From the IMG/VR virus record IMGVR_UViG_3300044259_000047, positions 22,060-86,059 of that record: 64,000 bases of DNA; one strand, 5' to 3'. Under the pieces are notes generated by a model. That model ran no database searches. It was not told where the DNA came from and worked only from the letters and a program-made list of their open reading frames with translations. This stretch comes from a virus (taxonomy: Duplodnaviria > Caudoviricetes). Of the stretch, positions 3,056 to 48,001 are shown one piece after another (position 1 is the stretch's first letter; each line of letters begins with the position of its first letter). The position numbers and the translations under genes were made by a program.

Positions 3056-3819
3056 GTAAGCACCTAATCGTAGCGGATACCCAGTGTAAGCCGGGTCACG
3101 ACCTAAGTTATATGTCAGCTATTGGCCAATACATTGCAGCTAAACGACCAGACGTTATTATTCATATTGGCGACCATTACGACTTTGAAAGCCTAAGTTC
3201 TTATGATCGTGGTAAGAAATCCTTTGAAGGTCGTCGTTTGATTGCTGATATCGAAGCGGGTAATAAAGGCATGGAGCTTATGATGAAACCCATTTGGGAT
3301 CTTCAACGAGCACAACGCCGATATAAAAAGAAAGTATACAATCCACGGCTTGTATTTTGTGTCGGGAACCATGAGCAGCGCTTCGACCGCGTTGCAAATG
3401 ATATGCCTGAGTTTGAAGGCTTCGTAGGTACAGAGACGTTACACCTAGAACGATATGGTTTTGAAGTACATGATTTCTTGCTTCCTGTAGAAATTGATGG
3501 TATTTTCTATGTACATTACCTTGCTAACCCATTCACAGGAAAACCTTACGGCGGTACAGCAATGAGTCAGCTTAAAACTGTAGGTCGATCCTTTGTTGTA
3601 GGGCATAAGCAATGTCTTGATATTGCAATTCGACCAAGTTTAGATGGTAAAATGCAGATTGGTATTATCAACGGTGCCTGCTATCCTCATGAAGAGGCAT
3701 ATAAAGGTTATCAAGGTAATAATCACTTCCGTGGTTTGACTATGCTACATGATGTTAAAGATGGATTTGGCAATCCGATGATGGTAAGTTTAGATTATTT
3801 GATGGAGAAATATGCCTAA
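3052..3819 (+). CDS. calcineurin-like metallophosphoesterase
   Basis: D-x-Q, GDHYD, GNHE and GH motifs. Confidence 0.85.
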   Translation: MSKHLIVADTQCKPGHDLSYMSAIGQYIAAKRPDVIIHIGDHYDFESLSSYDRGKKSFEGRRLIADIEAGNKGMELMMKPIWDLQRAQRRYKKKVYNPRLVFCVGNHEQRFDRVANDMPEFEGFVGTETLHLERYGFEVHDFLLPVEIDGIFYVHYLANPFTGKPYGGTAMSQLKTVGRSFVVGHKQCLDIAIRPSLDGKMQIGIINGACYPHEEAYKGYQGNNHFRGLTMLHDVKDGFGNPMMVSLDYLMEKYA

Positions 3820-4444: not shown

Positions 4445-5064
4445 ACATGAAAGTCGGAGACACTGTTAAACTAAAACCTGCAATGTGGCAAGGGATACGG
4501 CCTGAAGCCTATGGACTTAGTTTCGCTAGAGAGTATGTTGTCAGTACGGTTTATGAAGATCAAGAGTATCCAAGCTTGCGTATTGAAGGAATTGCTGGTA
4601 CGTTTGATGTTGAAGCTTTTCAATTGGTAAAGGAGAAAGAGGTGAGTAAATTTAAGGTTGGGAATAAGGTGATTTGTACTCATCGAGTAGACGGTAATTG
4701 GTACATGATCGGTGATGAGCTAGAGATTAGCGCTTGTCTTGGTGAAGTGTTTGATAATGGTCGCCGTTATATCGCTTATAATGTGGCAGCACATAAGGAT
4801 AAAGGTGTTTGGATTGAAGAGAGCGACTTTGAGTTGGTTAAACACTCTAAATCTTCTCTTGATGTTCAAGTAGGCGGAAGTCACTATAAAGACAAGGGAA
4901 TTCAACCTGTTGAATATTGCTACCAAAACAATCTAGGTTTCCTTGAATCTAATGTGGTGAAGTATGTCTCTCGCCACAAGGATAAAAACAAGGCTGATGA
5001 TATTAAAAAGGCTATCCACTACTGCAAATTTATCCTTGAGTTTGAATATGGAATTGTAGAATGA
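4441..5064 (+). CDS. DUF3310 / T7 gp1.7-like nucleotide-kinase domain protein
   Basis: C-terminal QVGGSHY...IQP.EY...NVVKYVSR..K....DIKKA.HY. Confidence 0.75.
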   Translation: MNMKVGDTVKLKPAMWQGIRPEAYGLSFAREYVVSTVYEDQEYPSLRIEGIAGTFDVEAFQLVKEKEVSKFKVGNKVICTHRVDGNWYMIGDELEISACLGEVFDNGRRYIAYNVAAHKDKGVWIEESDFELVKHSKSSLDVQVGGSHYKDKGIQPVEYCYQNNLGFLESNVVKYVSRHKDKNKADDIKKAIHYCKFILEFEYGIVE

Positions 5065-5609
5065 AACGTCTAATCTCTGTTGATTGTGATTTGACTGTTT
5101 GTCCTTCCGACCAAGGATGGTCTAAGTGGCTACAAGAAAGAACAGAAGGTCCAAAATCTTGGATTGAATATACGAATCAAAGGCCTTATAACTTAGCAGA
5201 GATTTACAAAGATGTTGAAGATCCTTTCAAATACTGGCGAGAACTTGATTACTTCCAATTACAACCTATTGAAGGTGCTGTTGATAAACTAAAAAATTTA
5301 AGTCAATACTTTAACATCTGCTTTGTTAGTGCTCATAAAGGCCAACACAGTAAGAGCAAGTACTATTGGTTGGAAGAGCATTTCCCATTCAATTGTGGTG
5401 TAATTCTTACTAAAGAAAAACACCTTATGAATGATTCAGTGCTATGTCATATTGATGATCGAAAAGATATGCTAGAAAAGTTTGACACTCACAAACGAGT
5501 GCTATACAATACCCCCTACAAGCAATCCTCTGATTGTTCTGTGAATATGGTGATTAATAATTGGGAAGATTTTAGTGTCTCTGAATTTTGTAAGGAATAT
5601 CTTAAGTGA
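5061..5609 (+). CDS. HAD-family 5'(3')-deoxyribonucleotidase
   Basis: DCDLT, K..WL..HFP and IDD motifs. Confidence 0.75.
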   Translation: MKRLISVDCDLTVCPSDQGWSKWLQERTEGPKSWIEYTNQRPYNLAEIYKDVEDPFKYWRELDYFQLQPIEGAVDKLKNLSQYFNICFVSAHKGQHSKSKYYWLEEHFPFNCGVILTKEKHLMNDSVLCHIDDRKDMLEKFDTHKRVLYNTPYKQSSDCSVNMVINNWEDFSVSEFCKEYLK

Positions 5610-5764: not shown

Positions 5765-6196
5765 TTGAAAGTCAAAGTAAAACGTCTGTATGAATCCGCT
5801 AAACTGCCAACCTATGCGACTGATGGTAGCGGTTGTTTTGATATCTACACTATGCTAAATGGTGATACTGAACACAACGATCCCCACACATTTTCAACTG
5901 GTCTTGCATTTGAAATTCCAGAAGATCATGTTATGCTTGTCTTTAGTCGTAGCGGTCACGGATTTAAACATGACGTTCGTCTGAGCAATTGTGTAGGAGT
6001 GATTGACTCAGATTATCGAGGAGAGCTAAAAGTCAAACTAGCTTGTGATAAAATCAATTGGGGTCTAGACTTTGCTGCTGGTGATCGAGTAGCACAAGGG
6101 ATGATTATTCCAATCGAGAAAGTAGAATTTGAAGAAGTTCGTGAACTGTCAGAAACAGTTCGTGGTACTGGCGGTTTTGGTAGCAGTGGTAAGTAA
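5765..6196 (+). CDS. dut: dUTPase (trimeric)
   Basis: RSG, GVIDSDYRGE, RVAQ and RG.GGFGSSG motifs. Confidence 0.95.
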   Translation: MKVKVKRLYESAKLPTYATDGSGCFDIYTMLNGDTEHNDPHTFSTGLAFEIPEDHVMLVFSRSGHGFKHDVRLSNCVGVIDSDYRGELKVKLACDKINWGLDFAAGDRVAQGMIIPIEKVEFEEVRELSETVRGTGGFGSSGK

Positions 6197-6887: not shown

Positions 6888-7486
6888 ATGAATTCAATAG
6901 ATTATGGTTTTTGTGACTATTTAGACGCTCTATGGAACTTGTATCAAGTACGTGGGGGATTTACTAGTGCAAATGCGGCTAGACATATCATGGATATTCG
7001 CGAAGAGATTTATTTAGCTTGGCTTGAAGATCAACCAGCCCAAGAATTTTACCTAGAAGACGCAGTATGGGATGATGAAGAATGAGTGAAATTGCACGAA
7101 ACATTAGCTTCTACCTACTAATGCAAGACAAAGAAGCTAAAGCAGTAATTGAATCTGGTGATGAAAAGAAGTTTAAAGACATTTTATATAAATGGGGTTG
7201 TGATGTTTACAACCAACCTTATGAAGTAGTTTCTTGTGAGCATCGACCAGTAGAAGGTAAACCTTTTGTGTTCAATGGTCCTCTAGTTGTCTCATCAGAG
7301 CGAATTGATGATTCTTGGATCAATAGCGGGTTTGCATCATTTAATGCTAAAGTGGCAAGTACTGGAGATATTGGGCTTAAACTACAGCTTGAGCAGATGA
7401 GTAGACAAGGCAGTAGTGAGAGGGCGTTTACAAATAAAAGTGCAGCCCGTAAAGCGGTAAAAGAAGAAAAGAGTCGTCAAGATTAA
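6888..7486 (+). CDS. two hypothetical proteins (6888-7085, 7082-7486)
   Basis: Coupled ORFs between thyX and nrdB. Confidence 0.6.
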
Positions 7487-8497: not shown

Positions 8498-10182
8498 GTC
8501 AAAGTTACGAAGAACTATCTATTGAGCGTAAAGAGTTACAAAAGAAAGGTTGGCTTCCTGATTGGTATACCACATTTGGCTGGCAGATGTTCAAAGCTAA
8601 GTATGCTTATGGTGGAGAAGAAGGTGCTAAAGGACGTTGGAGAACTATTGCTAAAACTCTTTCAAAATATGCTCCTGGCGACAAAAAAGAGTGGGAAGAA
8701 AAGTTCTTTAACCTGATGTGGAAGGGTTGGCTAAGTCCAGCCTCTCCGGTTCTCAGTAATACCGGGACAGATCGGGGGTTGAATGTAAGTTGTTCTGGTC
8801 TTGTAGTTGGAGATAGTATTGATAGCTTCTATAGCACACTACGAGAACAGGCATTGCTATCTAAATACGGTTTTGGCTGTTCTGGCGACTTTAGCGGTAT
8901 TCGTCCACGCGGTAGTGCTATCAGTGGCGGAGGTCATGCATCTGGTGTAGTTCCTGTTATTGAAGACTTTGCTATGATGACTTCTAAAGTAAGTCAAGGT
9001 GGTAATCGTCGAGGTTCTACCGCAAGTTACATTCCAATTGATCATGGTGACTTCTACGAGCTATGTGATAAAGTGGAAGCTGAACCAGATGGTTTTAACA
9101 TCGGATACATCATTACTGATGACTTCATTGAGCGTCTAAAAGTTGGCGATAAAGATGCACATGAACGATTCTCCCGTAGTCTGTATGTAAAGCTTGTAAC
9201 AGGTAAAGGTTACTATTTTAAAATTGGAGAGGCTAATCGTAAACGCCCTAAGATGTATAAAGACTTGGGTCTTGATATTAAAGCTACAAACCTTTGTACG
9301 GAAATCATGCTTCACTCCTCAGAGTCTATGACTTACAGTTGTATCTTGTCTAGCATGAACCTAGCTAAATACGATGAATGGAAAGATACCGATGCTGTGT
9401 TTGATTCAATGGTTTTCTTGGACTGCCTGTGCTCAGACTTTCTTGAAAAATCAGAAGGTATTGCAGGACTAGAAAAGGTTCGTAAGTTCACTGAGAAAGG
9501 CCGTGCTGTTGGCTTGGGTGTGATGGGCTTTAGCACTTACCTGCAAAGTAAACGGATTGCTTATGAATCACTAGAAGCTCAATTCCTAAATGCGGAAATG
9601 TTTAAAAAGCTTCGTGATGATAGTCTTAAAGCTTCTGAATACTTGGCAAAAGAATTGGGCTCACCTGAGTGGTGTCGTGGTTATGGTGTTCGCAACACTC
9701 ACCGTACTGCTCTAGCTCCAACCAAATCTAGTTCTATCTTAATGGGAGGTGTTAGTGAAATGACTTCTCCCGATCCGGGTATGTGTTATGAACAATCAAG
9801 TGCTGCTGGCGGTATGAAGCGTGTGAATGGTGAGCTTTACAAGTTGATGGTTGAACGTGGTGTTTACAACAAGAAAACCATCGATGATATCATTAACAAC
9901 ATGGGTTCTGTACAACATGTATCGTGGTTGAGTCAAGAAGAAAAATGGGTGTTCAAGACAGCTTTTGAGATTGACCAAGAAGTGATTCTACGGTACGCTT
10001 CACAACGGCAGAAGCACCTATGTCAAGGTCAGAGTCTGAATTTCTTTTTTGCTGAAGATGAAAAGAAGATTTCTGAGATTCATACGAAAGCTTTGCTAGA
10101 TCCAAATATTTTAAGCTTGTACTATATCTATAGCCGTTCTGGTGTGGTTGTAAATAGCGAATGTTTGGCTTGTAGTGCTTGA
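8494..10182 (+). CDS. nrdA: ribonucleotide reductase class Ia alpha subunit (short, no ATP cone evident)
   Basis: SPASP, SC, NLCTE, GLGVMG, APT.SSS, QGQSLN and C-terminal CLAC. Confidence 0.93.
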   Translation: MSQSYEELSIERKELQKKGWLPDWYTTFGWQMFKAKYAYGGEEGAKGRWRTIAKTLSKYAPGDKKEWEEKFFNLMWKGWLSPASPVLSNTGTDRGLNVSCSGLVVGDSIDSFYSTLREQALLSKYGFGCSGDFSGIRPRGSAISGGGHASGVVPVIEDFAMMTSKVSQGGNRRGSTASYIPIDHGDFYELCDKVEAEPDGFNIGYIITDDFIERLKVGDKDAHERFSRSLYVKLVTGKGYYFKIGEANRKRPKMYKDLGLDIKATNLCTEIMLHSSESMTYSCILSSMNLAKYDEWKDTDAVFDSMVFLDCLCSDFLEKSEGIAGLEKVRKFTEKGRAVGLGVMGFSTYLQSKRIAYESLEAQFLNAEMFKKLRDDSLKASEYLAKELGSPEWCRGYGVRNTHRTALAPTKSSSILMGGVSEMTSPDPGMCYEQSSAAGGMKRVNGELYKLMVERGVYNKKTIDDIINNMGSVQHVSWLSQEEKWVFKTAFEIDQEVILRYASQRQKHLCQGQSLNFFFAEDEKKISEIHTKALLDPNILSLYYIYSRSGVVVNSECLACSA

Positions 10183-33374: not shown

Positions 33375-34024
33375 TATTTATCTCCCTCAAATGTTACATT
33401 AGTGATCTCACCAGTTTCTTGGTTGATGCGTCCTTTAGCTCCGATACTAACTCCCGAAACAACACCTTGCTTCTTAAGATTCCAAAGCGTTTCATCGTTG
33501 TATTTGATTTTAGCTACCCAAGTACCAGCTTTAATAATCTCACCAGTTTGAACTACTTGAACATCAAGTTCTTTTTGAATCCAAGTAGACTCAATAGTAA
33601 ATGCTTCAGTTTCTTTAAGATGGAACAGATTAGCCTTTACTACACCAGCTTCAAGATTTTTATTAAAGCTTTCAGCAGCCTTCTCAATGGTTTTATCGCT
33701 CATCCACTCTCCATGAGCATCCTTTACAAAAGGCTCATAGATAACTTCGTAGCTAACCATTTTTTCATCAAGAATTTCTGGCTTTTGTTCAGACTCTGTT
33801 GCACCGAAAGCTTTCTCAATCATTTCAGAAACACTTTCAAGAAGGCTTTTTTTAACCTTCTCTTTAGCATTCTTAGCGGCAGCAAGACCTGTAGCAATAG
33901 CTCGCCCTTCGTCACCTTCGTATTCTGAAAGTGCAGCGTTTGCAGCAGCAACAAAAACATCTCTTGCATGACCTTTAAGCTTTTCTGCTGCTGGAGGCAG
34001 TTTGTCACTAGCTTTCCAAGGCAT
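33374..34024 (-). CDS. XkdF-like prohead protease with N-terminal ChaB-like domain
   Basis: YEP...DAHGEW, NLFH, GTW, G.SIG; N-terminal LP....L..HA..VF..A.N.A. Confidence 0.75.
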   Translation of the reverse strand: MPWKASDKLPPAAEKLKGHARDVFVAAANAALSEYEGDEGRAIATGLAAAKNAKEKVKKSLLESVSEMIEKAFGATESEQKPEILDEKMVSYEVIYEPFVKDAHGEWMSDKTIEKAAESFNKNLEAGVVKANLFHLKETEAFTIESTWIQKELDVQVVQTGEIIKAGTWVAKIKYNDETLWNLKKQGVVSGVSIGAKGRINQETGEITNVTFEGDK

Positions 34025-34780
34025 TATGTATTTTCTCCGTTAGCGGTTGAACCATCGCCAGAACTACCATCTGCGCTTCCTGTACCTGATGGTATTCCAG
34101 AAGTCATACCTTCTCCGGCATTAGATGTAAAGCCTGTTAATGTTTCTTGGTAATTTACAAGTTCTTCAGTAGAGTCAATTCTGTCTGGTAATCCAACCCA
34201 CTCAGCAATCTTATTAAGATTTTGCGGAGTTTTCTGGATAAGTCCTTGACTACCTGCACGTTGTAGATACTTGGAAATAACATCCAAATCTTCTTCTTTA
34301 ACTTGAGCAAACTCAAACTTTGGAAGACGTTCTAACGACCAGCCGTTGAGTAAAAATAGCTGAGGGATAAGGTCATTATTCAGAACATCTTGAATCTCTT
34401 TTAGTCGGGATTCAACAGCCATTTGCATGATGCTTGATTTACTGTCAGCTAGATTGTAAGAACCGCCTTTACTGTTACCCATTTGCAGTAAATCAGCAAA
34501 CAGCGCTTGAAGAATTTTGTTGTCCCATCGAGTAACGGCTACGTTAGTATCATATTGAGAAGCATTAGGTGGACCTACAAGCTTCCAGTCAAATAGTGGT
34601 TTACCTTGATCGTCGTAAAGGCTCGGGAAGACAACACAGGCTTGTTCATTACTTTGCAGGTTGCGTCCAATACGTTTTACTTCTTCGTAAACAGCCTTCT
34701 CTTCTGCTGTAGCGTCTAGAGACATGAACTTAGCAGGAAGTCTGAAATCAGGAATACCACCCAAACCACGAGTAATTCCG
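34024..34780 (-). CDS. portal protein, exon 2
   Basis: In frame after splicing: (V)GITRGLGGIP...GSYNLA.SK...LN.DLIPQL..LNGW. Confidence 0.85.
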
Positions 34781-35787
34781 CATTTGTGTTCAGGGAGGGT
34801 CGTTAATCCTCCCCCGCTTTATTCAAGCTGCTGCATGTTTCCATGCAGATCAGACTATATCACCATCTCTTTGAGATGCTTACCATTTCCACCTACTTAG
34901 GTGTACTCCCTTGCGGGATAGTCGTTGCACTTTCCACTTCAATTATCTGTTTTAGAATTTAAATGGTTTAGAAATTTCTTTGTAAGAATTCCTATTCTTA
35001 ATGTCGTACACCAAAGCTTTAGTGACCTCGATGTTTTCAGACATTTCAAATATTTGCTTTACTGTAAATCCTTCCTCAAGCCTATTGCAAACCCAGAGTA
35101 TAGTATTTACCGAAACACGCTTCTGCCTAACTTTTGTAAGTTTATAATCAGAAGAAATATGTTTCCAAGCTGTTCCATTTCTTACTTGTGAAACAAGAGA
35201 TTTACTGACTTTCAATCTCTCACACACATCTTTATTTCTAAATCCTTGTTCCAAAAGACTGCAAATTTCCCTAACCAGAACTTCTTCATTTACATTGTTA
35301 TAATGACTCTCACCAATATAACTAAGTAAACCGCTCTCACTAGCGTGTCTTGCATTCTCTTTATGGTCAACCCATTCTAAGTTTTCACATTGATTATTTA
35401 CTTTATTTCCGTCAATGTGATTGACGAGGGGCTTACCTTCGGGGTTTGGAACAAAACTTTCAGCAACCAGTCTATGAACACTCTTTTTAACAACAGCCCC
35501 GTCCTTGTATCTGATGGTGACTCTGTAGTATCCGCTGTTCGACAACTCTTGCTTTAATTCTTTTCTAGGTCCAAATACGTTTCCTTTGTTGTCAACGCTG
35601 TAACCTTTACTATTCTCGATAACTTTCTTCATATTAGCCTCCTACTGGGATTCGGAGATAACTGAAGTGGCTTAGCTCAGGATTGCCCTCGTCTTTACGT
35701 TAGGGGTTTCCCTGAATTAGATAAGTTTTGGTAGTTTAAACTACCGAGGATTTCATGTCAAATCACTTCAACATGCCGCTGAAATTA
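34781..35787 (-). mobile_element. self-splicing group I intron in the portal gene
   Basis: P1 GCCGU/GCGGC with U.G at the 5' splice site, P/Q/R/S core elements, P7 GACUA/UAGUC, terminal G. Confidence 0.9.
34952..35632 (-). CDS. intron-encoded HNH homing endonuclease (I-HmuI/NUMOD4-like)
   Basis: VHRLVAESF.PNP..KP.VNHIDGNK.NN...NLEW....EN..HA. Confidence 0.9.
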   Translation of the reverse strand: MKKVIENSKGYSVDNKGNVFGPRKELKQELSNSGYYRVTIRYKDGAVVKKSVHRLVAESFVPNPEGKPLVNHIDGNKVNNQCENLEWVDHKENARHASESGLLSYIGESHYNNVNEEVLVREICSLLEQGFRNKDVCERLKVSKSLVSQVRNGTAWKHISSDYKLTKVRQKRVSVNTILWVCNRLEEGFTVKQIFEMSENIEVTKALVYDIKNRNSYKEISKPFKF

Positions 35788-36509
35788 ACGGCCTCAGATT
35801 CTTCGATTTGCTTTCTGTATTTCCAAGCAGTATAAACTTTAGCTAGTGGACTTCGACCTTGCGGATTATCTCGTGTAACGTCAGTTCTGAACAGAAGGAA
35901 TTTCTTACGAGGGATTTCAATTTCACCAGCAAAGTCTTGAGAATTAGCAAGTCTAAATCCATCATTAAGAAGGGATGTATCTTGAACTACAGCAAGCAAA
36001 TCTCTACCGTCGTCAGAGAATTTCCATTCTTTGATTGTGGTTTGTGATCGTACAGGAAGTTTCTTAATACCTACAAGACCATCATTGTATTTAGAACCAT
36101 TCACCCTATATCTGCGACGATACACCTTCTCATTAACACAGTACCCGTATGTAAACATGCTGGTAACTTCTTTAATGAAGGAGAACCAACTGTGTTCCAT
36201 ATCGTCTTTGCATTGCTCTACAAACTTAGTGTATTTCTTCTCTTCGTCTGTAGCATCAATTGGTGGAAGTACACTCCAATCAACCCTACTAATCATCATC
36301 TCAAACAAAGAAAGAGCTGATGCAATAGTTGCATCCTGAGACATCTCTTGGTAAGTTCTGTTGGCTCTAGGGTAAACAAGATCCTTTCTAGCTTCTTCAA
36401 GAATAATGCCATCAAACTCTTTCAAACCCGGATAACCAGTCTCTCCAAGCTTTACGCGGGGAATGGCAGAGTCTCCGGTCTGTAGGTCTAGGCTTTCGTT
36501 ATCTGCCAT
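35788..36509 (-). CDS. portal protein, exon 1
   Basis: Follows terL; YG....EKVY, KLP.R.Q, IP..KFLLF...NP.G.SPL. Confidence 0.85.
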
Positions 36510-36534: not shown

Positions 36535-38016
36535 TTACACTCTAAAGGGGTTAGACTGTGACATAGATGGGAATGAGACGGTAGGAATTTGAAATTTTTG
36601 AACAAGGTGTAGGTACGCGAGCGACATGCAGTCACAAACATCGTCGTGTCCTGCCTCACCGCTTTTCCTTGTACCATCAAAGTTTTCTAATTCCCGTAAG
36701 AAGAATTCGTTATCACATGAAATCTTATTCCAGTAGTCATGACCACAATTATCTACAATATGAACAATCCCTAATTCGGCAGATGCTGCAAAAGGTCTAA
36801 AGGCATCTAGTTTACCCTGAGAAGCCCTTTGGGTTTTTGCAATATAACCTGCTTCAATAATCTGCTTAGCAAGCAATTTAATAGATGCTTTTGCTGCTGG
36901 GTTAGGATCTTCACCAAGAACAATTTCAGTTTTAAAACCATCTCGTCTAGCGTGGTCTAAAATATGGTCTAGCCACTGTCCGAATGTGATTCGTGTACGT
37001 GTTACCTCAATAACAACGTATTCGCCAGAAGATTTCAACCTACCCATTTTTACACTAGCAAAGTAGTCAGGGCTTCTGTTACCATCGTGAGGTAGTGTAC
37101 CAGCTACGTCATAAACCCTCACAAGCTTATCGAATTCTAAGTCGAGAGGCGCCTTATCTAGTGTTGGGCAAGTTGATCTACTAAAGTATGAACTATTTTC
37201 TGGCTTCGCAAACCAGTTACCATGAAGCAATCGTTCACGTTCAAGACGAGGAAGAGCCTCCAAGTTTTGCTTGTACTGTGGATTTGATTTCATCAACGGG
37301 GGGTTATCGTCAATAGTACCAAATAAACCTTGAAAGCTAATTGGTGCTTTATCATATCCGTACTTTTCTTGAAGTTCTTCAGCAGTATCGCCCCAACAGA
37401 GTTCACCATTAATACGAAGTAGATAACGAATCTTACCGTTCTTTTCAGGATCAGGACGACCTTCTAAAGGATGACCAAGCGGATACAAATACCACATGGC
37501 ATACTTTAGAACCCAACTTGCATTGTCGGGGTTACAGGACCACCACATTGAATGTGTATTTTTTGCATTAGAACGAAGACGCGACCAAAGCCACCAGAGT
37601 TGTTCTTCATTATCTGCATGAGTTACCTCATCGTAGAAAATGTTTGAAATCTGAATACCTTGATACTTCTTAGCCGCTGTGTCATTCTCATAATGTGAGA
37701 ATGAGATTTCACTCCCGCTGGAAAAAACTAGCTTCTGATCCTTCAATTTCACTTTAAGTTTAGGGTCGTACTGAGTATAAAGAGCAACAGCTTCCCAAAA
37801 TAAACCACCAGAAGCCATAATGGCGCTGGAGTTCTTACGAATACAATATGCTTTATAATGAGGATCTTCTACAAAGCGAAGATGTCTCATTAGACCAACA
37901 TACGATTTAGATGATCCGGCAGCGCCGCCTACTAGGATAATTTGTGCGTCTGAATTGAGGTACTCTTGTTGAAAAGTAGACGCCGGTCCGATAGGAGCCT
38001 GCTGTTCACTCATCAC
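36535..38016 (-). CDS. terL: terminase large subunit
   Basis: GGAAGSSKS Walker A, YQG, FYDE Walker B, CNPD, HDD..D nuclease motif. Confidence 0.92.
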   Translation of the reverse strand: MMSEQQAPIGPASTFQQEYLNSDAQIILVGGAAGSSKSYVGLMRHLRFVEDPHYKAYCIRKNSSAIMASGGLFWEAVALYTQYDPKLKVKLKDQKLVFSSGSEISFSHYENDTAAKKYQGIQISNIFYDEVTHADNEEQLWWLWSRLRSNAKNTHSMWWSCNPDNASWVLKYAMWYLYPLGHPLEGRPDPEKNGKIRYLLRINGELCWGDTAEELQEKYGYDKAPISFQGLFGTIDDNPPLMKSNPQYKQNLEALPRLERERLLHGNWFAKPENSSYFSRSTCPTLDKAPLDLEFDKLVRVYDVAGTLPHDGNRSPDYFASVKMGRLKSSGEYVVIEVTRTRITFGQWLDHILDHARRDGFKTEIVLGEDPNPAAKASIKLLAKQIIEAGYIAKTQRASQGKLDAFRPFAASAELGIVHIVDNCGHDYWNKISCDNEFFLRELENFDGTRKSGEAGHDDVCDCMSLAYLHLVQKFQIPTVSFPSMSQSNPFRV

Positions 38017-39386: not shown

Positions 39387-39586
39387 TCCTTTATTTTATA
39401 ATTATTGGGACTGAAATAAGTGCTGAAGGCCACTTGTCTACCTGCCAATCAGCGTGATACTCCATAGGTGAGTATCCTCTCCGCAAGCCCCTCAAGGGGA
39501 ACTCTGTATAAATTAGGTGAAGCCCCGCCAGAGGCTTCTGGGTGTGTCCTAGGCAAAGGACGATACCAGACCGTTGCGGCCTAGTT

Positions 39587-39664
39587 TGGTGCCGGATGCG
39601 ACGGATCGAACGCGCAACCTCCTGAGTACAAAACAGGGATTCTAACCTATTGAACTAATCCGGC
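39587..39664 (-). tRNA. tRNA-Thr(UGU)
   Basis: GCCGGAT/ATCCGGC acceptor, TTCGA T-loop, TT-TGT-AC loop, encoded CCA. Confidence 0.85.
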
Positions 39665-39701
39665 TTTATTAATTTGTGTTGCAGTACCTATCTCTGCTGA
39701 T

Positions 39702-39771
39702 CCTATTTAGGCAAGAATCGAACTTGCAACGTCAATGGCTTTGACTTTCAGTGCCAATTACTCTAAACAGG
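39702..39771 (-). ncRNA. tRNA-like cloverleaf without CCA, embedded in a larger structured RNA
   Basis: 9-bp closing stem, D-like arm with GG, GCAAG-TTCGATT-CTTGC T arm, aberrant anticodon arm. Confidence 0.55.
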
Positions 39772-39872
39772 GCTTTTCATCCATCGTTTCACAATCTGCC
39801 AAATTGCTTGTAAGGCTCTTCCGCCGTCTCCGACTGCACTTCTAGGATTTCAGTGCTGAACACAAAACTGTT

Positions 39873-40262
39873 TTAATCTTCTTTATTCCCATGAAGCATA
39901 GTTAAGCTGAAGCGTCTGACTGGAACTTCTGGTGTTGAATTATCTTCTTCAGGAGTGTCTTCTGAATTCTCTTCCAAAGACTTCTTAATTGCATTTTTAC
40001 GTTGCTCTTCACCAACTGCTGCTGTTGTCGTTGAAACAATACGTTCAATAACCCACTTAGAGCTAGAAAGCTGGTCCTTTGGAACATCTTCACCTTTGAT
40101 AGATTTTTCAATATTCTCAAGTGAGGCATCTTCAAGCTGTGAAAGCTTTTTAAGAAGCTTACGCAATTCACTACGTCTACCACGAGGGCCTTTTATACCC
40201 TTGCGGTTGATGTTGTCAGGATTAGAACTGAGGCCCTGTTTGTTCCCAACTGGTGCTGGCAT
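39873..40262 (-). CDS. putative terminase small subunit
   Basis: MPAP.GNK.G..NP.NINRKG N-terminus, helical body, upstream of terL. Confidence 0.55.
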   Translation of the reverse strand: MPAPVGNKQGLSSNPDNINRKGIKGPRGRRSELRKLLKKLSQLEDASLENIEKSIKGEDVPKDQLSSSKWVIERIVSTTTAAVGEEQRKNAIKKSLEENSEDTPEEDNSTPEVPVRRFSLTMLHGNKED

Positions 40263-40294
40263 GATAAATACCTTTATAATTATTCTAGAAAGAA

Positions 40295-40487
40295 ATCTTT
40301 CTGAAACCTACTAATCAAAAATAGGCTTTAGAAAGATGCAGCTATCAACAGGAGAATGAATTAATAGCTGCACATAGCTCTACAACATGGAGGAGAAAGA
40401 CACATTGTAGAGAGATAGCTTCACGTATGAGAGGAGAAACAAAACGTGAAGCATACACATCGTTACTTGCTTTATTTCGCTGATGTG
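40295..40487 (-). ncRNA. five-hairpin array; three loops carry anti-Shine-Dalgarno UUCUCCU
   Basis: Stems at 40337-40372, 40378-40412 and 40418-40452; G.U pairs favour the - strand. Confidence 0.65.
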
Positions 40488-40491
40488 GATT

Positions 40492-40563
40492 CATTCCCGG
40501 CAAGGGTCGAACTTGCAACCAGAATCTTAGAAGGATTCTGCTCTACCATTGAGCTACGAGAAT
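40492..40563 (-). tRNA. tRNA-Arg(UCU)
   Basis: TAGCTCAATGGTAGAGC D arm, GAATC-CTTCTAA-GATTC anticodon arm, TTCGA; no encoded CCA. Confidence 0.9.
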
Positions 40564-40572
40564 ATTCTTTTA

Positions 40573-41133
40573 TTATGTAAGATAGACATCGATCACGGTT
40601 CTGATACTTCCGCGTCCGACTCCGAGTTTTCTGGCTAATCCTAGAGACCCGAACTCTCTGCTACCCTTAACGTAATTATTTTTAATATAATTAACTTGAT
40701 CTTCTGTCAACCTGAATTGTGAATTCTCAAGACCATACTTAGGATTTACCACCTGCAATCCATTCAAAACTGCATGCTGTGCATTTTGCTTCGGTGTGCA
40801 CCATTCTAGATTAGAAACATGATTATTTGTTTTATTACAATCTTTGTGGTTTACCAAAACAACGCCATATACGTGTTTCGAGCACTCGTCTATCATTTCT
40901 TGAGAAGGTGGTTCCAGAAATGCTTCAGCTACCATTCTGTGAACTTTGAATAGTTTTGCCTTTCCATCCCTTCCACCAATCCTAGTTGCAAAGGAAGGAT
41001 AACCGCCTGTTTTAGAGTTGATAAGTTTTATTGGTCTATTTCTAGTCTTAGACCAAACGTTACCAAAATTACTAACCATAAAGCGGTCTTCGTACCCAAC
41101 AACATCTTTCCAAATTTCAATTTCTTCTTGCAT
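40573..41133 (-). CDS. NUMOD4-HNH homing endonuclease in the tRNA cluster
   Basis: EIWKDV.GYE..F.VSN.G, VHRMVA.AF, VNHKD.NK.NN...NLEWCT. Confidence 0.88.
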   Translation of the reverse strand: MQEEIEIWKDVVGYEDRFMVSNFGNVWSKTRNRPIKLINSKTGGYPSFATRIGGRDGKAKLFKVHRMVAEAFLEPPSQEMIDECSKHVYGVVLVNHKDCNKTNNHVSNLEWCTPKQNAQHAVLNGLQVVNPKYGLENSQFRLTEDQVNYIKNNYVKGSREFGSLGLARKLGVGRGSIRTVIDVYLT

Positions 41134-41274
41134 TTAAAACCTCTATAGTCAAATTACTCAATGTCGCAACAGGGACACGGAACAAACCCTACAAAGAGTA
41201 ATTTGCCATAAAAGTCTTTCTGTTGCGTGTTTTTAACGACTGTTGCGCAGCCGATAAATCTTTAAAATAGGTTC

Positions 41275-41371: not shown

Positions 41372-41400
41372 ATTGTAACATTATTACATCACAATTGCAA
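41372..41400 (-). promoter_or_regulatory. sigma70-like promoter for the tRNA cluster
   Basis: TTGCAA-17-TACAAT. Confidence 0.7.
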
Positions 41401-41975: not shown

Positions 41976-42027
41976 CTTAATCTCTTATTTACTAAATATT
42001 TGTATTATTTATTACTTAATCTTATAT

Positions 42028-42445
42028 ACTTCCAACTGAGTTCAGATAAGAACTTCAGATAAAAGAAACCCTTACCCAGCCATACAAAGCTAACGCTCTG
42101 CCTAAGACTGAGTAGAGTACCTTATCTGATAGCTTTTATCTGCCTCTATCCGTTATGATAGATTCTTCCAACTTGAGACGAGATTAAGAGGATCTTTCAA
42201 TCCTACGGTCTGCACGGATCACACAGCCGTCTTCAGGACAATAACACGTTCAATGTATTGCCTTGCTACATTGCATATCGCACAGCCTTGACGGGCTGAC
42301 AGGGAGGTAGTAGCTTTCAGTTTACCTTGCAGACTGTCCCATCACTCACAGTAGTCCGCTTGTTTAAGCTTGTCGCTGCCAGGTCATGCAGGAAGCAGAA
42401 GCCACCACATTAGCCGACCAACAAGCCGATCAAAATAAATTTGAA
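42028..42445 (-). ncRNA. candidate ~420-nt structured ncRNA
   Basis: No ORF in the track, GC-enriched, many stems with G.U on the - strand, directly downstream of TTGTAC-17-TATAAT. Confidence 0.55.
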
Positions 42446-42450
42446 GTAAT

Positions 42451-42643
42451 ATTATACACCTAAAGCGAAGAGAGTACAAGGAATAAATCCTTTATATTTT
42501 ATCTCTACCTTCCCATACAAGTATACCACTGTTTCAGTAGTATGGCAAGCATTATTTTAATCTTTACACAACCTTTACATTTCTGCGGCTACACAAAAAT
42601 ATTTCCAAAACCCCTTGCATCCCTCCCCTACCACTGCTATCCT
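42451..42643. promoter_or_regulatory. divergent promoter region
   Basis: - strand TTGTAC-17-TATAAT (42479-42451) and TTGCCA-17-TATACT (42548-42520); + strand TTGCAT-17-TATCCT (42615-42643). Confidence 0.75.
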
Positions 42644-46289: not shown

Positions 46290-48001
46290 TTTACATTTTA
46301 GCTTGGCTCTTATGCGGTGTATGTTCTTTTTATCTCTTAAAATCTTTCCTCTATCGCATCACAGAAAATCAAGGAGGGTTGTTCCATTGTATTCAAGAAT
46401 TATTCGAGCAAATGGATAAGGAAGAAATTGAAAAGAATGGATATACAGACGAAACATGGAAATTAGCTGATGAAAATACAATGTTGGCTGTTGTTCATAC
46501 ACTATTTATTGTAATGAACTTAATTATCTGGCCATTGGTACTTGCAGCTTTGCTTTATTGGATGTATACTGGTGCTACTTGGGACCAATTGATTTATGAG
46601 AAGGAGAAACGAGATGATTGAAGTAAAAGCAATTAGTTTTGGTTTTGAAAATTGCGAAAGTGTAGAAGTTCCAATTGAGTACGTTTGGCATTTTTCAATT
46701 AACGAAATTACAAAACTTAAAACATACCACTGTTCAAACGGAATTAATGAATATTCTGTTGTAAATAAGCTCCATGTACAATTTGAGAAAAAGTTTGACG
46801 ACTATACAGAACAGTCTGAGTATGGGGATTTTGTAATTGCTCGACTTTCTAAGTACAATGACATTTGCTGGTTTGGTATTATTTACCAAGATGGTAGTAA
46901 AGAAAACTACATGGTTGCATGGAAAGGGGAAGATCAGCACAGTAATTCTGCACAGAAAACAACTCACGAAGAGTGGGGACTTTTGATTGAGGTGGGTTAT
47001 GAATGACACTCACGTTTTGAAAAACAGTCTTAAAATTCTATATGCCGATCATCCTGAAATCCTATTGATGCTTGATCAGATTTCATTTGATAAATTGAAT
47101 GTACAATGGAAACAAGAATTATTTTCAAGAATTAATCCAGAAACTTATTATTTGGTTGAAGAATTTCTTGCATCTGAGATTTATGCTAACTATACTCAAG
47201 CGGTTCATGCAGCCACACTAGCAATGACTAGACCCCTCAGCGATTTGATGAGCTTTGTACTTGAAACTAATAAAGGAGAAATTAATTGAAATTTAGTATT
47301 CGCTTAAGTGAACAAGAATGCAATGATGTATTTGGAGCTATCAAGGCAGAACATGATTTTCCAATTGTCATTAATGGACGTAAGTTCGATTGTCATACAG
47401 CGGCTATGTCAAGCTACTCGAATGGAAATGGTTGGTTTGGTCCAGAAAGCATGGAACTAGAAATTGACGGTTATGGTGAAGACAAGAAAGCCGAGGAAAT
47501 TGCACAAGCTAAGGCTGAAGTGAATCGTACGAAGGAAGCACATAAAAAAGCCCAGCGTAAACTAAGCGCTTTGATGGAGGACAAGTAATGTCAACTAAAG
47601 CTCAATACCAATCCGTCCTAGCCGACATGAATGCTTTGGAAACTCATGTTGATGAATCTGTTGTTATCATCTCGAACATAGAAGATGATCCTGAAGTATT
47701 CCAATATACAGACAATATATACACACAAATTGCTAATATTAAATCATGGAGTAGCAGTAAAATAAATGAGATTGAGAAGCAAGAGATGCTTGAGGTATTT
47801 CTAGCACAAATGAGGGGTTTATTTATTGAATATGGGGCTAAGCTTGAAATTGTTAGTGCTGCTGAGGGTGTAGGGTATGGTCTTCAGTATGGGGAAGGTG
47901 GTGCTAGTGAGAGTGCAGGATTTAAGCTAACAATTGAGAAAGAAGGGTTGACTGTTTCTAAAATCTATGAAACAATGATTCTGCAAGGCGATAATATTTA
48001 A
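46286..48001 (+). CDS. five hypothetical proteins (46286-46621 membrane, 46614-47006, ~46999-47289, 47286-47588, 47588-48001)
   Basis: Coupled ORFs with RBSs. Confidence 0.6.

Follow-up and report, generated by a model that had tools for sequence, protein, structure and literature searches.

The closest described systems to the phage locus presented here are the cuckoo, or alpha-r14, RNAs of Alphaproteobacteria (NfeR1, RSs0680/CcsR), which are defined by two to four neighbouring hairpins, each 24-50 nt long, that differ in their stems and carry the loop motif CCUCCUCCC (PMC4615179; here and below, statements from the literature refer to the available portions of the cited sources). One of them, NfeR1, silences many mRNAs through three redundant anti-Shine-Dalgarno (anti-SD) loops and does not require Hfq (bioRxiv 10.1101/2025.11.14.688489). 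In S. aureus, RNAIII and RsaE also use C-rich hairpin loops as seeds for pairing with ribosome-binding sites (RBSs). Among phages, the c4 antisense RNA of P1 and P7 has loops that pair near an RBS (PMC12197685), and T4 RegB cuts GGAG-type SD sites of one temporal class of messages, freeing ribosomes for later genes (PMC3014915). For small RNAs of virulent phages a function has seldom been established; the only ones named in the available part of PMC4933390 are the T4 band C and D RNAs, whose function is unknown.

We analysed a stretch of 64,000 nucleotides (the window) from an 86,059-base virus record. The large terminase of the window phage shares 53% identity with its counterpart in Pseudomonas phage phiPMW and about 37% with those of the PAK_P3 group; the closest cultured relatives infect Pseudomonas. 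An array of hairpins in the window shares with the cuckoo RNAs the adjacent hairpins, the variable stems and the constant anti-SD loop, here on three hairpins of 35-38 nt, and the Rfam model ar14 (RF02344) aligns to its minus strand over positions 1-123 of 123 (E 1.6e-4), with a score of 31.8 bits that misses the gathering cut-off of 58.8 bits. The phage loops read UUCUCCU and so differ from the principal motif CCUCCUCCC, to which PMC4615179 adds tolerated variants in its Fig. 3C. The setting differs too: cuckoo genes lie on alphaproteobacterial replicons beside a conserved neighbour, OG1, whereas the phage array adjoins tRNA-Arg, HNH and terminase genes. The phage RNA belongs to lytic phages, where it stands at the head of a late operon; it has an extra 3' stem, also exists in single-hairpin forms and carries a loop that varies with RBS type. 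The likeness is probably due to convergence.

RNAIII and RsaE, which the earlier note on this DNA had put forward as analogues, are less near than the cuckoo RNAs with their full-model ar14 match: they have a UCCC core, long extended duplexes, defined targets and a chromosomal location (PMC4615179), and their Rfam families gave no match, either at gathering or with the E limit raised to 10. The c4 RNA differs in its specific targets (ant) and its temperate carriers (PMC12197685), and the C4 Rfam family did not match the array. RegB is an early protein nuclease cutting early mRNAs (PMC3014915), whereas the phage array is a predicted late site-masking RNA, so that the likeness is limited to the presumed purpose. 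The same note knew of no phage element of this kind, and our literature searches agree with it: no paper on such a phage RNA was found in the accessible sources, and the supplements of large RNA-motif surveys and bioRxiv may hold one. It is likely that the array is an uncatalogued, cuckoo-like anti-SD RNA of lytic phages (Rfam ar14, below threshold) that acts as a broad late translational damper. In full, we propose a conserved non-coding RNA, made late with the tRNA/terminase operon, that would occlude AGGAGA-type sites and damp the translation of non-structural, possibly also host, messages; we give this reading a probability of about one half.

Architecture and coding strand of the array

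On the minus strand the genes follow in the order tRNA-Met, HNH gene, tRNA-Arg, hairpin stretch, 129-aa ORF, tRNA-Thr, terminase and virion module. The features concerned are:

41372..41400, minus strand: sigma-70-like promoter match upstream of tRNA-Met (9/12, TG; consensus match only)
40573..41133, minus strand: NUMOD4/HNH endonuclease gene, inserted between tRNA-Met and tRNA-Arg
40491..40564, minus strand: tRNA-Arg(UCU), directly upstream of the hairpin stretch
40456..40487, minus strand: hairpin H0, weak 5' hairpin of 6 bp, sequence almost invariant in L001, L005 and L370
40418..40452, minus strand: hairpin H1, 9-bp stem, loop with UUUCUCCU, near-identical in L001, L005 and L370
40378..40412, minus strand: hairpin H2, 12-bp stem, loop with UUUCUCCU, 8 of 12 pairs changed on both sides in five homologues
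40336..40373, minus strand: hairpin H3, 14-bp stem including G.U, loop with AUUCUCCU, 12 of 14 pairs changed on both sides
40297..40335, minus strand: 3' stem H4, without CU loop, base UUUCU-W-AAG
39873..40262, minus strand: 129-aa ORF downstream of the array, putative small terminase by position only
36535..38016, minus strand: terminase large subunit, first gene of the virion module and marker for collecting relatives

The minus strand of 40280-40500 folds with -70.6 kcal/mol (z -7.56), a value reached by none of 200 shuffles, and the centres of H0 to H4 lie 36-40 nt apart. The stems of H1, H2 and H3 are unrelated, while each of their loops carries UUCUCCU, a motif unpaired with a predicted probability of 0.95-1.0; three copies of TCTCCT in the 228-nt intergenic stretch were matched by 0 of 5000 dinucleotide shuffles. 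The regular five-hairpin array that had been described 3' of tRNA-Arg is thereby confirmed. For its middle three hairpins, the coordinates of H1 and H2 and the loops hold as quoted, and H3 proves slightly longer (40336-40373, 14 bp with G.U). The base of H4 reappears 3' of the last loop hairpin in most arrays, and H4 could possibly serve as a processing or end signal; at the other end, 3' processing of tRNA-Arg would free the 5' end of the hairpin RNA. Promoter-consensus matches in the region are not above chance (19 found, 16.3 expected). The 129-aa ORF has no Pfam match and one weak match to a PHROG of unknown function, and its RBS, AAAGGU, pairs poorly with the array loops.

RsmY/Z-type sponges of RsmA/CsrA display GGA in their loops, and the plus strand of 40280-40500 also folds (-58.5 kcal/mol, z -4.48) with AGGA in three loops, in a phage whose closest cultured relatives infect Pseudomonas. 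A plus-strand sponge of this type is nevertheless scarcely credible. Within the stems of 43 distinct hairpins, internal wobbles read as G.U on the CU strand in 31 cases and as A.C in one (22 hairpins versus 0), which identifies the CU, or minus, strand as the RNA and disfavours the strand with GGA loops; the CsrB/RsmY/RsmZ families gave no Rfam match, and the transcript mapped at the corresponding hairpin of PAK_P3 (PMC10914365) is the CU strand. The direction given in the earlier note, that of the tRNA operon, is thus upheld by the wobble pairs.

Other structured stretches were observed on the minus strand of the window. The leader of the HNH gene (41134-41260) is predicted to form a long stem (z -3.43), and the RBS of the gene is covered by the 3' arm of this stem, a layout consistent with a homing-endonuclease leader that masks the RBS. 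An ORF-free stretch of 480 nt (42020-42500) lies behind a 10/12 promoter match (42548-42520), folds with -150 kcal/mol (z -3.2) and has no Rfam match. Multi-hairpin non-coding stretches flank tRNA-Thr on both sides (39395-39590 and 39660-39870), the upstream one containing a tRNA-like T-arm uncalled by ARAGORN. Finally, a portal-type ORF is apparently split (35763-36509 and 34024-34764; window 34024-36509) around an HNH-like ORF (34952-35632), which suggests an intron.

Constant loops on variable stems in related phages

The loci of relatives were collected through two terminase proteins. Arrays of two to four CU-loop hairpins are present in L001, L002, L004, L005, L008, L009, L013, L176, L191, L192 and L204, and a pattern scan added L370. 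The search with a model derived from the window and L005 recovers L001, L002 and L204 at E < 1e-8. Across five homologous sequences, 31 of 50 pairs are changed on both sides and 97% of cells are paired, a combination matched by none of 500 shuffles and by no slid control; as the alignment was fitted to the model, these covariation counts are biased towards it. When nine arrays were aligned by sequence only, no consensus structure emerged (0 pairs), because the stems are too diverged. Four sequencing runs yielded contigs, probably of DNA, of which two span the array (40274-40488) in relatives and differ from it mainly in the stems. The comparison of loops with stems that had been suggested as a check therefore favours the original proposal of a modular RNA with constant anti-SD loops: the loops are kept and the stems vary in compensating pairs.

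Homology searches by sequence returned little. Searching the array by blastn against 50,697 phage records gave tRNA matches only; at the Rfam gathering threshold the window holds tRNAs only, and the matches in eight loci are to group I introns as well as tRNAs. Viral contigs scanned with a three-motif pattern gave 120 loci, in which the detector finds four two- or three-hairpin matches of repeat type that served as a control. With a stricter pattern, 12 loci were obtained, comprising two already in the set, one new true homologue (L370) and nine unrelated ones. The alignment of small-terminase proteins offered no stretch conserved enough for use as a search query, and the search of genome contigs gave two loci without usable host.

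Further elements were noted in these loci. L002 (~3585-3790) and L005 (~6025-6195) have in common a structured RNA of ~200 nt between tRNA and array, absent from the window and without Rfam match at E 0.01. Group I introns lie at or within the large terminase gene region in L004 (10084-10296), L008 (9744-9965) and L013 (10002-10284).

At least one CU-loop hairpin lies between the divergence point and the large terminase in 27 of the 31 genomes or long contigs examined (24 by script, three by inspection). Each such phage has one to four hairpins at the head of the late tRNA/terminase region, and the cultured PAK_P3, PaZq-1, phiPsa315 and phiPMW are among them. Within the same 31 genomes, G010, G024 and wV8 have no CU-loop hairpin, and G008 (L017) has three UUCUCCU in a different fold, on the late strand, in a non-coding structured region between the putative small terminase and the next gene. 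A strict detector finds 38 hairpins in 20 of the 31 genomes on the late strand versus one in one genome on the opposite strand of the same regions; under a loose rule the counts are 49 versus 14. Loop length ranges from 7 to 18 nt. Single hairpins stand before the first tRNA in phiPMW and SYP, among the tRNAs in PaZq-1, and before the putative small terminase in PAK_P3 and phiPsa315; their motif and position suggest homology with the arrays. The PaZq-1 hairpin matches 123 records and the PAK_P3 leader 41, duplicates included, and among the matches listed they are mostly unannotated.

The place of the hairpins bears on a cis-acting role, in which they would form the leader of the downstream gene or operon, as an RBS-masking pseudoknot, as stabilising 5' stems or as a processing signal. 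Such a leader is suggested by the single hairpin that stands just before the putative small-terminase start in PAK_P3, phiPsa315, L175, L181 and L207, some of these with GGAG, and by the PAK_P3 transcription units that start at 84633, given in the available part of PMC10914365 only as mRNAs of 825-2036 nt. In the phages with arrays, however, the downstream RBS is AGGU, AGGAU, AGGAA or AGAG, which allows at most 3-4 nt of pairing, and the loops are kept before a tRNA (phiPMW group), between tRNAs (PaZq-1) and before unrelated genes (L005, L013, L204). We therefore regard a role confined to cis as very unlikely.

Several structures outside this set were also observed. Five more distant phages were inspected, and a tRNA-region hairpin was found in phiEa104 only (L348, 8111-8139, within the tRNA cluster), with a loop reading ACCUCCU though its own RBSs are mostly AGGAA; this loop presumably resembles the 3' end of 16S rRNA. 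A conserved, unannotated structured stretch common to Pakpunavirus and Otagovirus lies behind a divergent promoter in PaZq-1 (L249, ~4800-5130) and phiPsa315 (L251, ~1270-1570), with no Rfam match at E 0.01. In a subgroup without hairpins, a conserved stem with internal CCCUCUC lies upstream of the putative small terminase (L007, ~7330-7390; L228, ~9120-9180).

Correspondence between loops and ribosome-binding sites

The gene calls come from a custom script with an equal preference for SD-bearing starts in every class. In the window genome, 23 of 136 non-structural genes are preceded by AGGAGAA, as against 0 of 35 structural genes. UUCUCCU had been read as the complement of the common RBS of this phage, and the loops do complement its own RBS type; AGGAGAA is the common RBS for the non-structural genes and does not hold for the virion module. 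The bias persists for ORFs of at least 100 aa (AGGAGA in 16/53 versus 2/33, p 0.007) and without start calls (0 sites in 26.5 kb versus 34 in 53 kb). All start regions with at least eight bases complementary to a loop (15, 19 and 13 for the three loops) lie outside the structural module, and sites complementary to the loops are more frequent in the opposite-strand blocks (19/90) than in the terminal same-strand block (4/46).

In 17 of the 21 genomes compared, the phage's own loops distinguish structural from non-structural genes better than the 16S tail does. The share of AGGAGG among non-structural AGGAG(A/G) sites is 0.44-0.77 in four phages with CCUCCU loops only and 0.06-0.44 in 14 with UCUCCU only, and loop type correlates with RBS type (Spearman 0.53, 25 genomes). 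In the tree, three of the four CCUCCU-only phages fall in one clade and G019 stands apart, so that about two independent contrasts are available. From these sequence comparisons, loop type appears to follow the non-structural RBSs of each phage, UCUCCU going with AGGAGA and CCUCCU with AGGAGG. A loop that simply repeated the unchanging 16S tail would show no such variation. The same RBS bias is seen in Barba28A (2/35 versus 26/85), VH-8 (1/33 versus 17/102) and wV8 (0/27 versus 14/94), in which no hairpin was detected, so the bias alone is no proof of targeting. Avoidance of own-loop 7-mers (17/203 versus 113/542) was not significant when loop labels were permuted among 21 genomes (p 0.20), and most of the phiPMW group has no class difference between structural and non-structural genes (AUC 0.43-0.59).

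The earlier note had also supposed that the variable flanks of the loops address particular genes, and this the data did not bear out. The strongest predicted duplex, between H1 and the start of gene 46614-47006, reaches -21.1 kcal/mol, the values in 30 other start sets being -8.4 to -16.1; for the G001 orthologue of that gene, pairing with H1 falls to -3.6 kcal/mol. As the sole strong pairing is thus unconserved, gene-specific targeting through the flanks was rejected. For H3 the best gain on pairing is only -3.3 kcal/mol (without kissing), because the stems are stable.

Loops that do not select particular genes could also be decoys, titrating a protein that recognises single strands rich in pyrimidines or similar to the 16S tail (a ribosomal protein, a chaperone or a defence nuclease), with additional copies adding sites. 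Identical motifs repeated on interchangeable stems in one to four copies would suit such a role, as would the lack of conserved gene-specific pairing and the presumed 16S-like loop of phiEa104. There is little reason, however, for the site of a host protein to alternate between UCUCCU and CCUCCU according to the RBS type of the phage, and loop length is variable (7-18 nt), so that we deem a decoy distinctly unlikely. An RNA that pairs with a class of RBSs remains our preferred reading.

Transcription and timing in PAK_P3

The anti-SD hairpin of PAK_P3 is unannotated and lies at 84651-84683. A start site has been mapped at 84633 on the CU strand (PMC10914365 and its supplement), 18 nt before the hairpin, and the gene downstream, gp161, is late (log2 2.6; PMC4933390 supplement). 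The transcription units from this site are the mRNAs mentioned above, and the portion of the supplement at hand (PMC10914365) gives no free small RNA at the hairpin and no row for 84633, P071 or gp161 in Table S7. PAK_P3 also makes two late small RNAs, sRNA1 and sRNA2, in the same tRNA/terminase region (PMC4933390; PMC10914365). One transcription unit is common to sRNA1 and the anti-SD hairpin, whereas the mapped positions of sRNA1 and sRNA2, 85248-85458 and 86307-86426, leave the hairpin outside both (PMC10914365).

Expression classes were compared for 163 PAK_P3 genes, gp001 and gp113 being left out. The loop complement shows no enrichment in the genes measured as early (AGGAGG in 7/51 early versus 18/82 late), and the loop binds early starts less well (AUC 0.34). 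This differs from RegB and its early targets, a comparison tested in PAK_P3 only. An early shut-off by the hairpin RNA is not borne out by these data and was rejected. The best matches are flat and non-structural late genes (28/77 versus 5/35 structural, p 0.02, post hoc).

The same pairing could be aimed mainly at host mRNAs, in the manner of a host shut-off, and the match to phage RBSs would then reflect shared SD usage only. Any AGGAG site is complementary to the loops, the RBS bias exists in phages without a detected hairpin, the phiEa104 loop is unsuited to its own RBSs, and the early genes of PAK_P3 are not enriched. Against this, the switch between UCUCCU and CCUCCU tracks the RBS type of the phage itself among phages of Pseudomonas hosts, and late in PAK_P3 infection host transcripts already make up less than 13% of non-rRNA (PMC4933390); a mainly host-directed RNA seems to us unlikely.

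Pairing could, conversely, protect or promote messages with AGGAGA sites, for instance as a shield from a GGAG-cutting nuclease, with no silencing. Only analogues indicate the sign of the effect, and the best-matching PAK_P3 genes are flat or rising late, yet SD-bound NfeR1 and RNAIII block 16S pairing (PMC4615179; bioRxiv 10.1101/2025.11.14.688489), and we find protection highly improbable. Repression by occlusion of RBSs is the effect retained in the mechanism below.

Proposed mechanism and its meaning

The proposed mechanism builds on the observed fold, strand, loop-versus-stem conservation and position, and on the RBS bias in the window genome. The array would be transcribed late together with the tRNA/terminase operon, and the hairpin RNA would be released when the tRNA is processed or would start at a promoter next to it, the latter as in several relatives; we infer transcription and release because of the neighbouring tRNA and the mapped late transcript of PAK_P3. 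The redundant UCUCCU loops would then pair with AGGAGA-type RBSs, and the translation of non-structural phage mRNAs, possibly also of host mRNAs, would be damped. Pairing and repression are expected because the cuckoo RNA NfeR1 acts in this way, and they would extend to the phage RNA by analogy. Virion genes, which lack AGGAGA-type sites in the window genome, would escape the damping. The targets would be a class of sites and not chosen genes, and they may be more like DNA-metabolism or middle genes than the earliest ones.

It is tempting to extend this proposal to a translational phase switch across the lineage, by which we mean Pakpunavirus, Nankokuvirus, Otagovirus, Plaisancevirus and their uncultured kin. 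A late RNA tuned to the RBS dialect of each phage would mask non-structural and host messages, and ribosomes would pass to virion mRNAs written in another dialect. We hold this extension to be rather unlikely, as a tentative generalisation.

Were the proposal true, a conserved RNA that recognises the SD type would give lytic phages a novel means of redistributing ribosomes, as the RNA equivalent of T4 RegB, and it would explain why the virion genes of the lineage have other RBSs. The single-hairpin form in cultured Pseudomonas phages makes the idea testable there. It may also provide a tractable case for the question, left open in the available text of PMC4615179, of whether cuckoo-type RNAs act as global or selective repressors.
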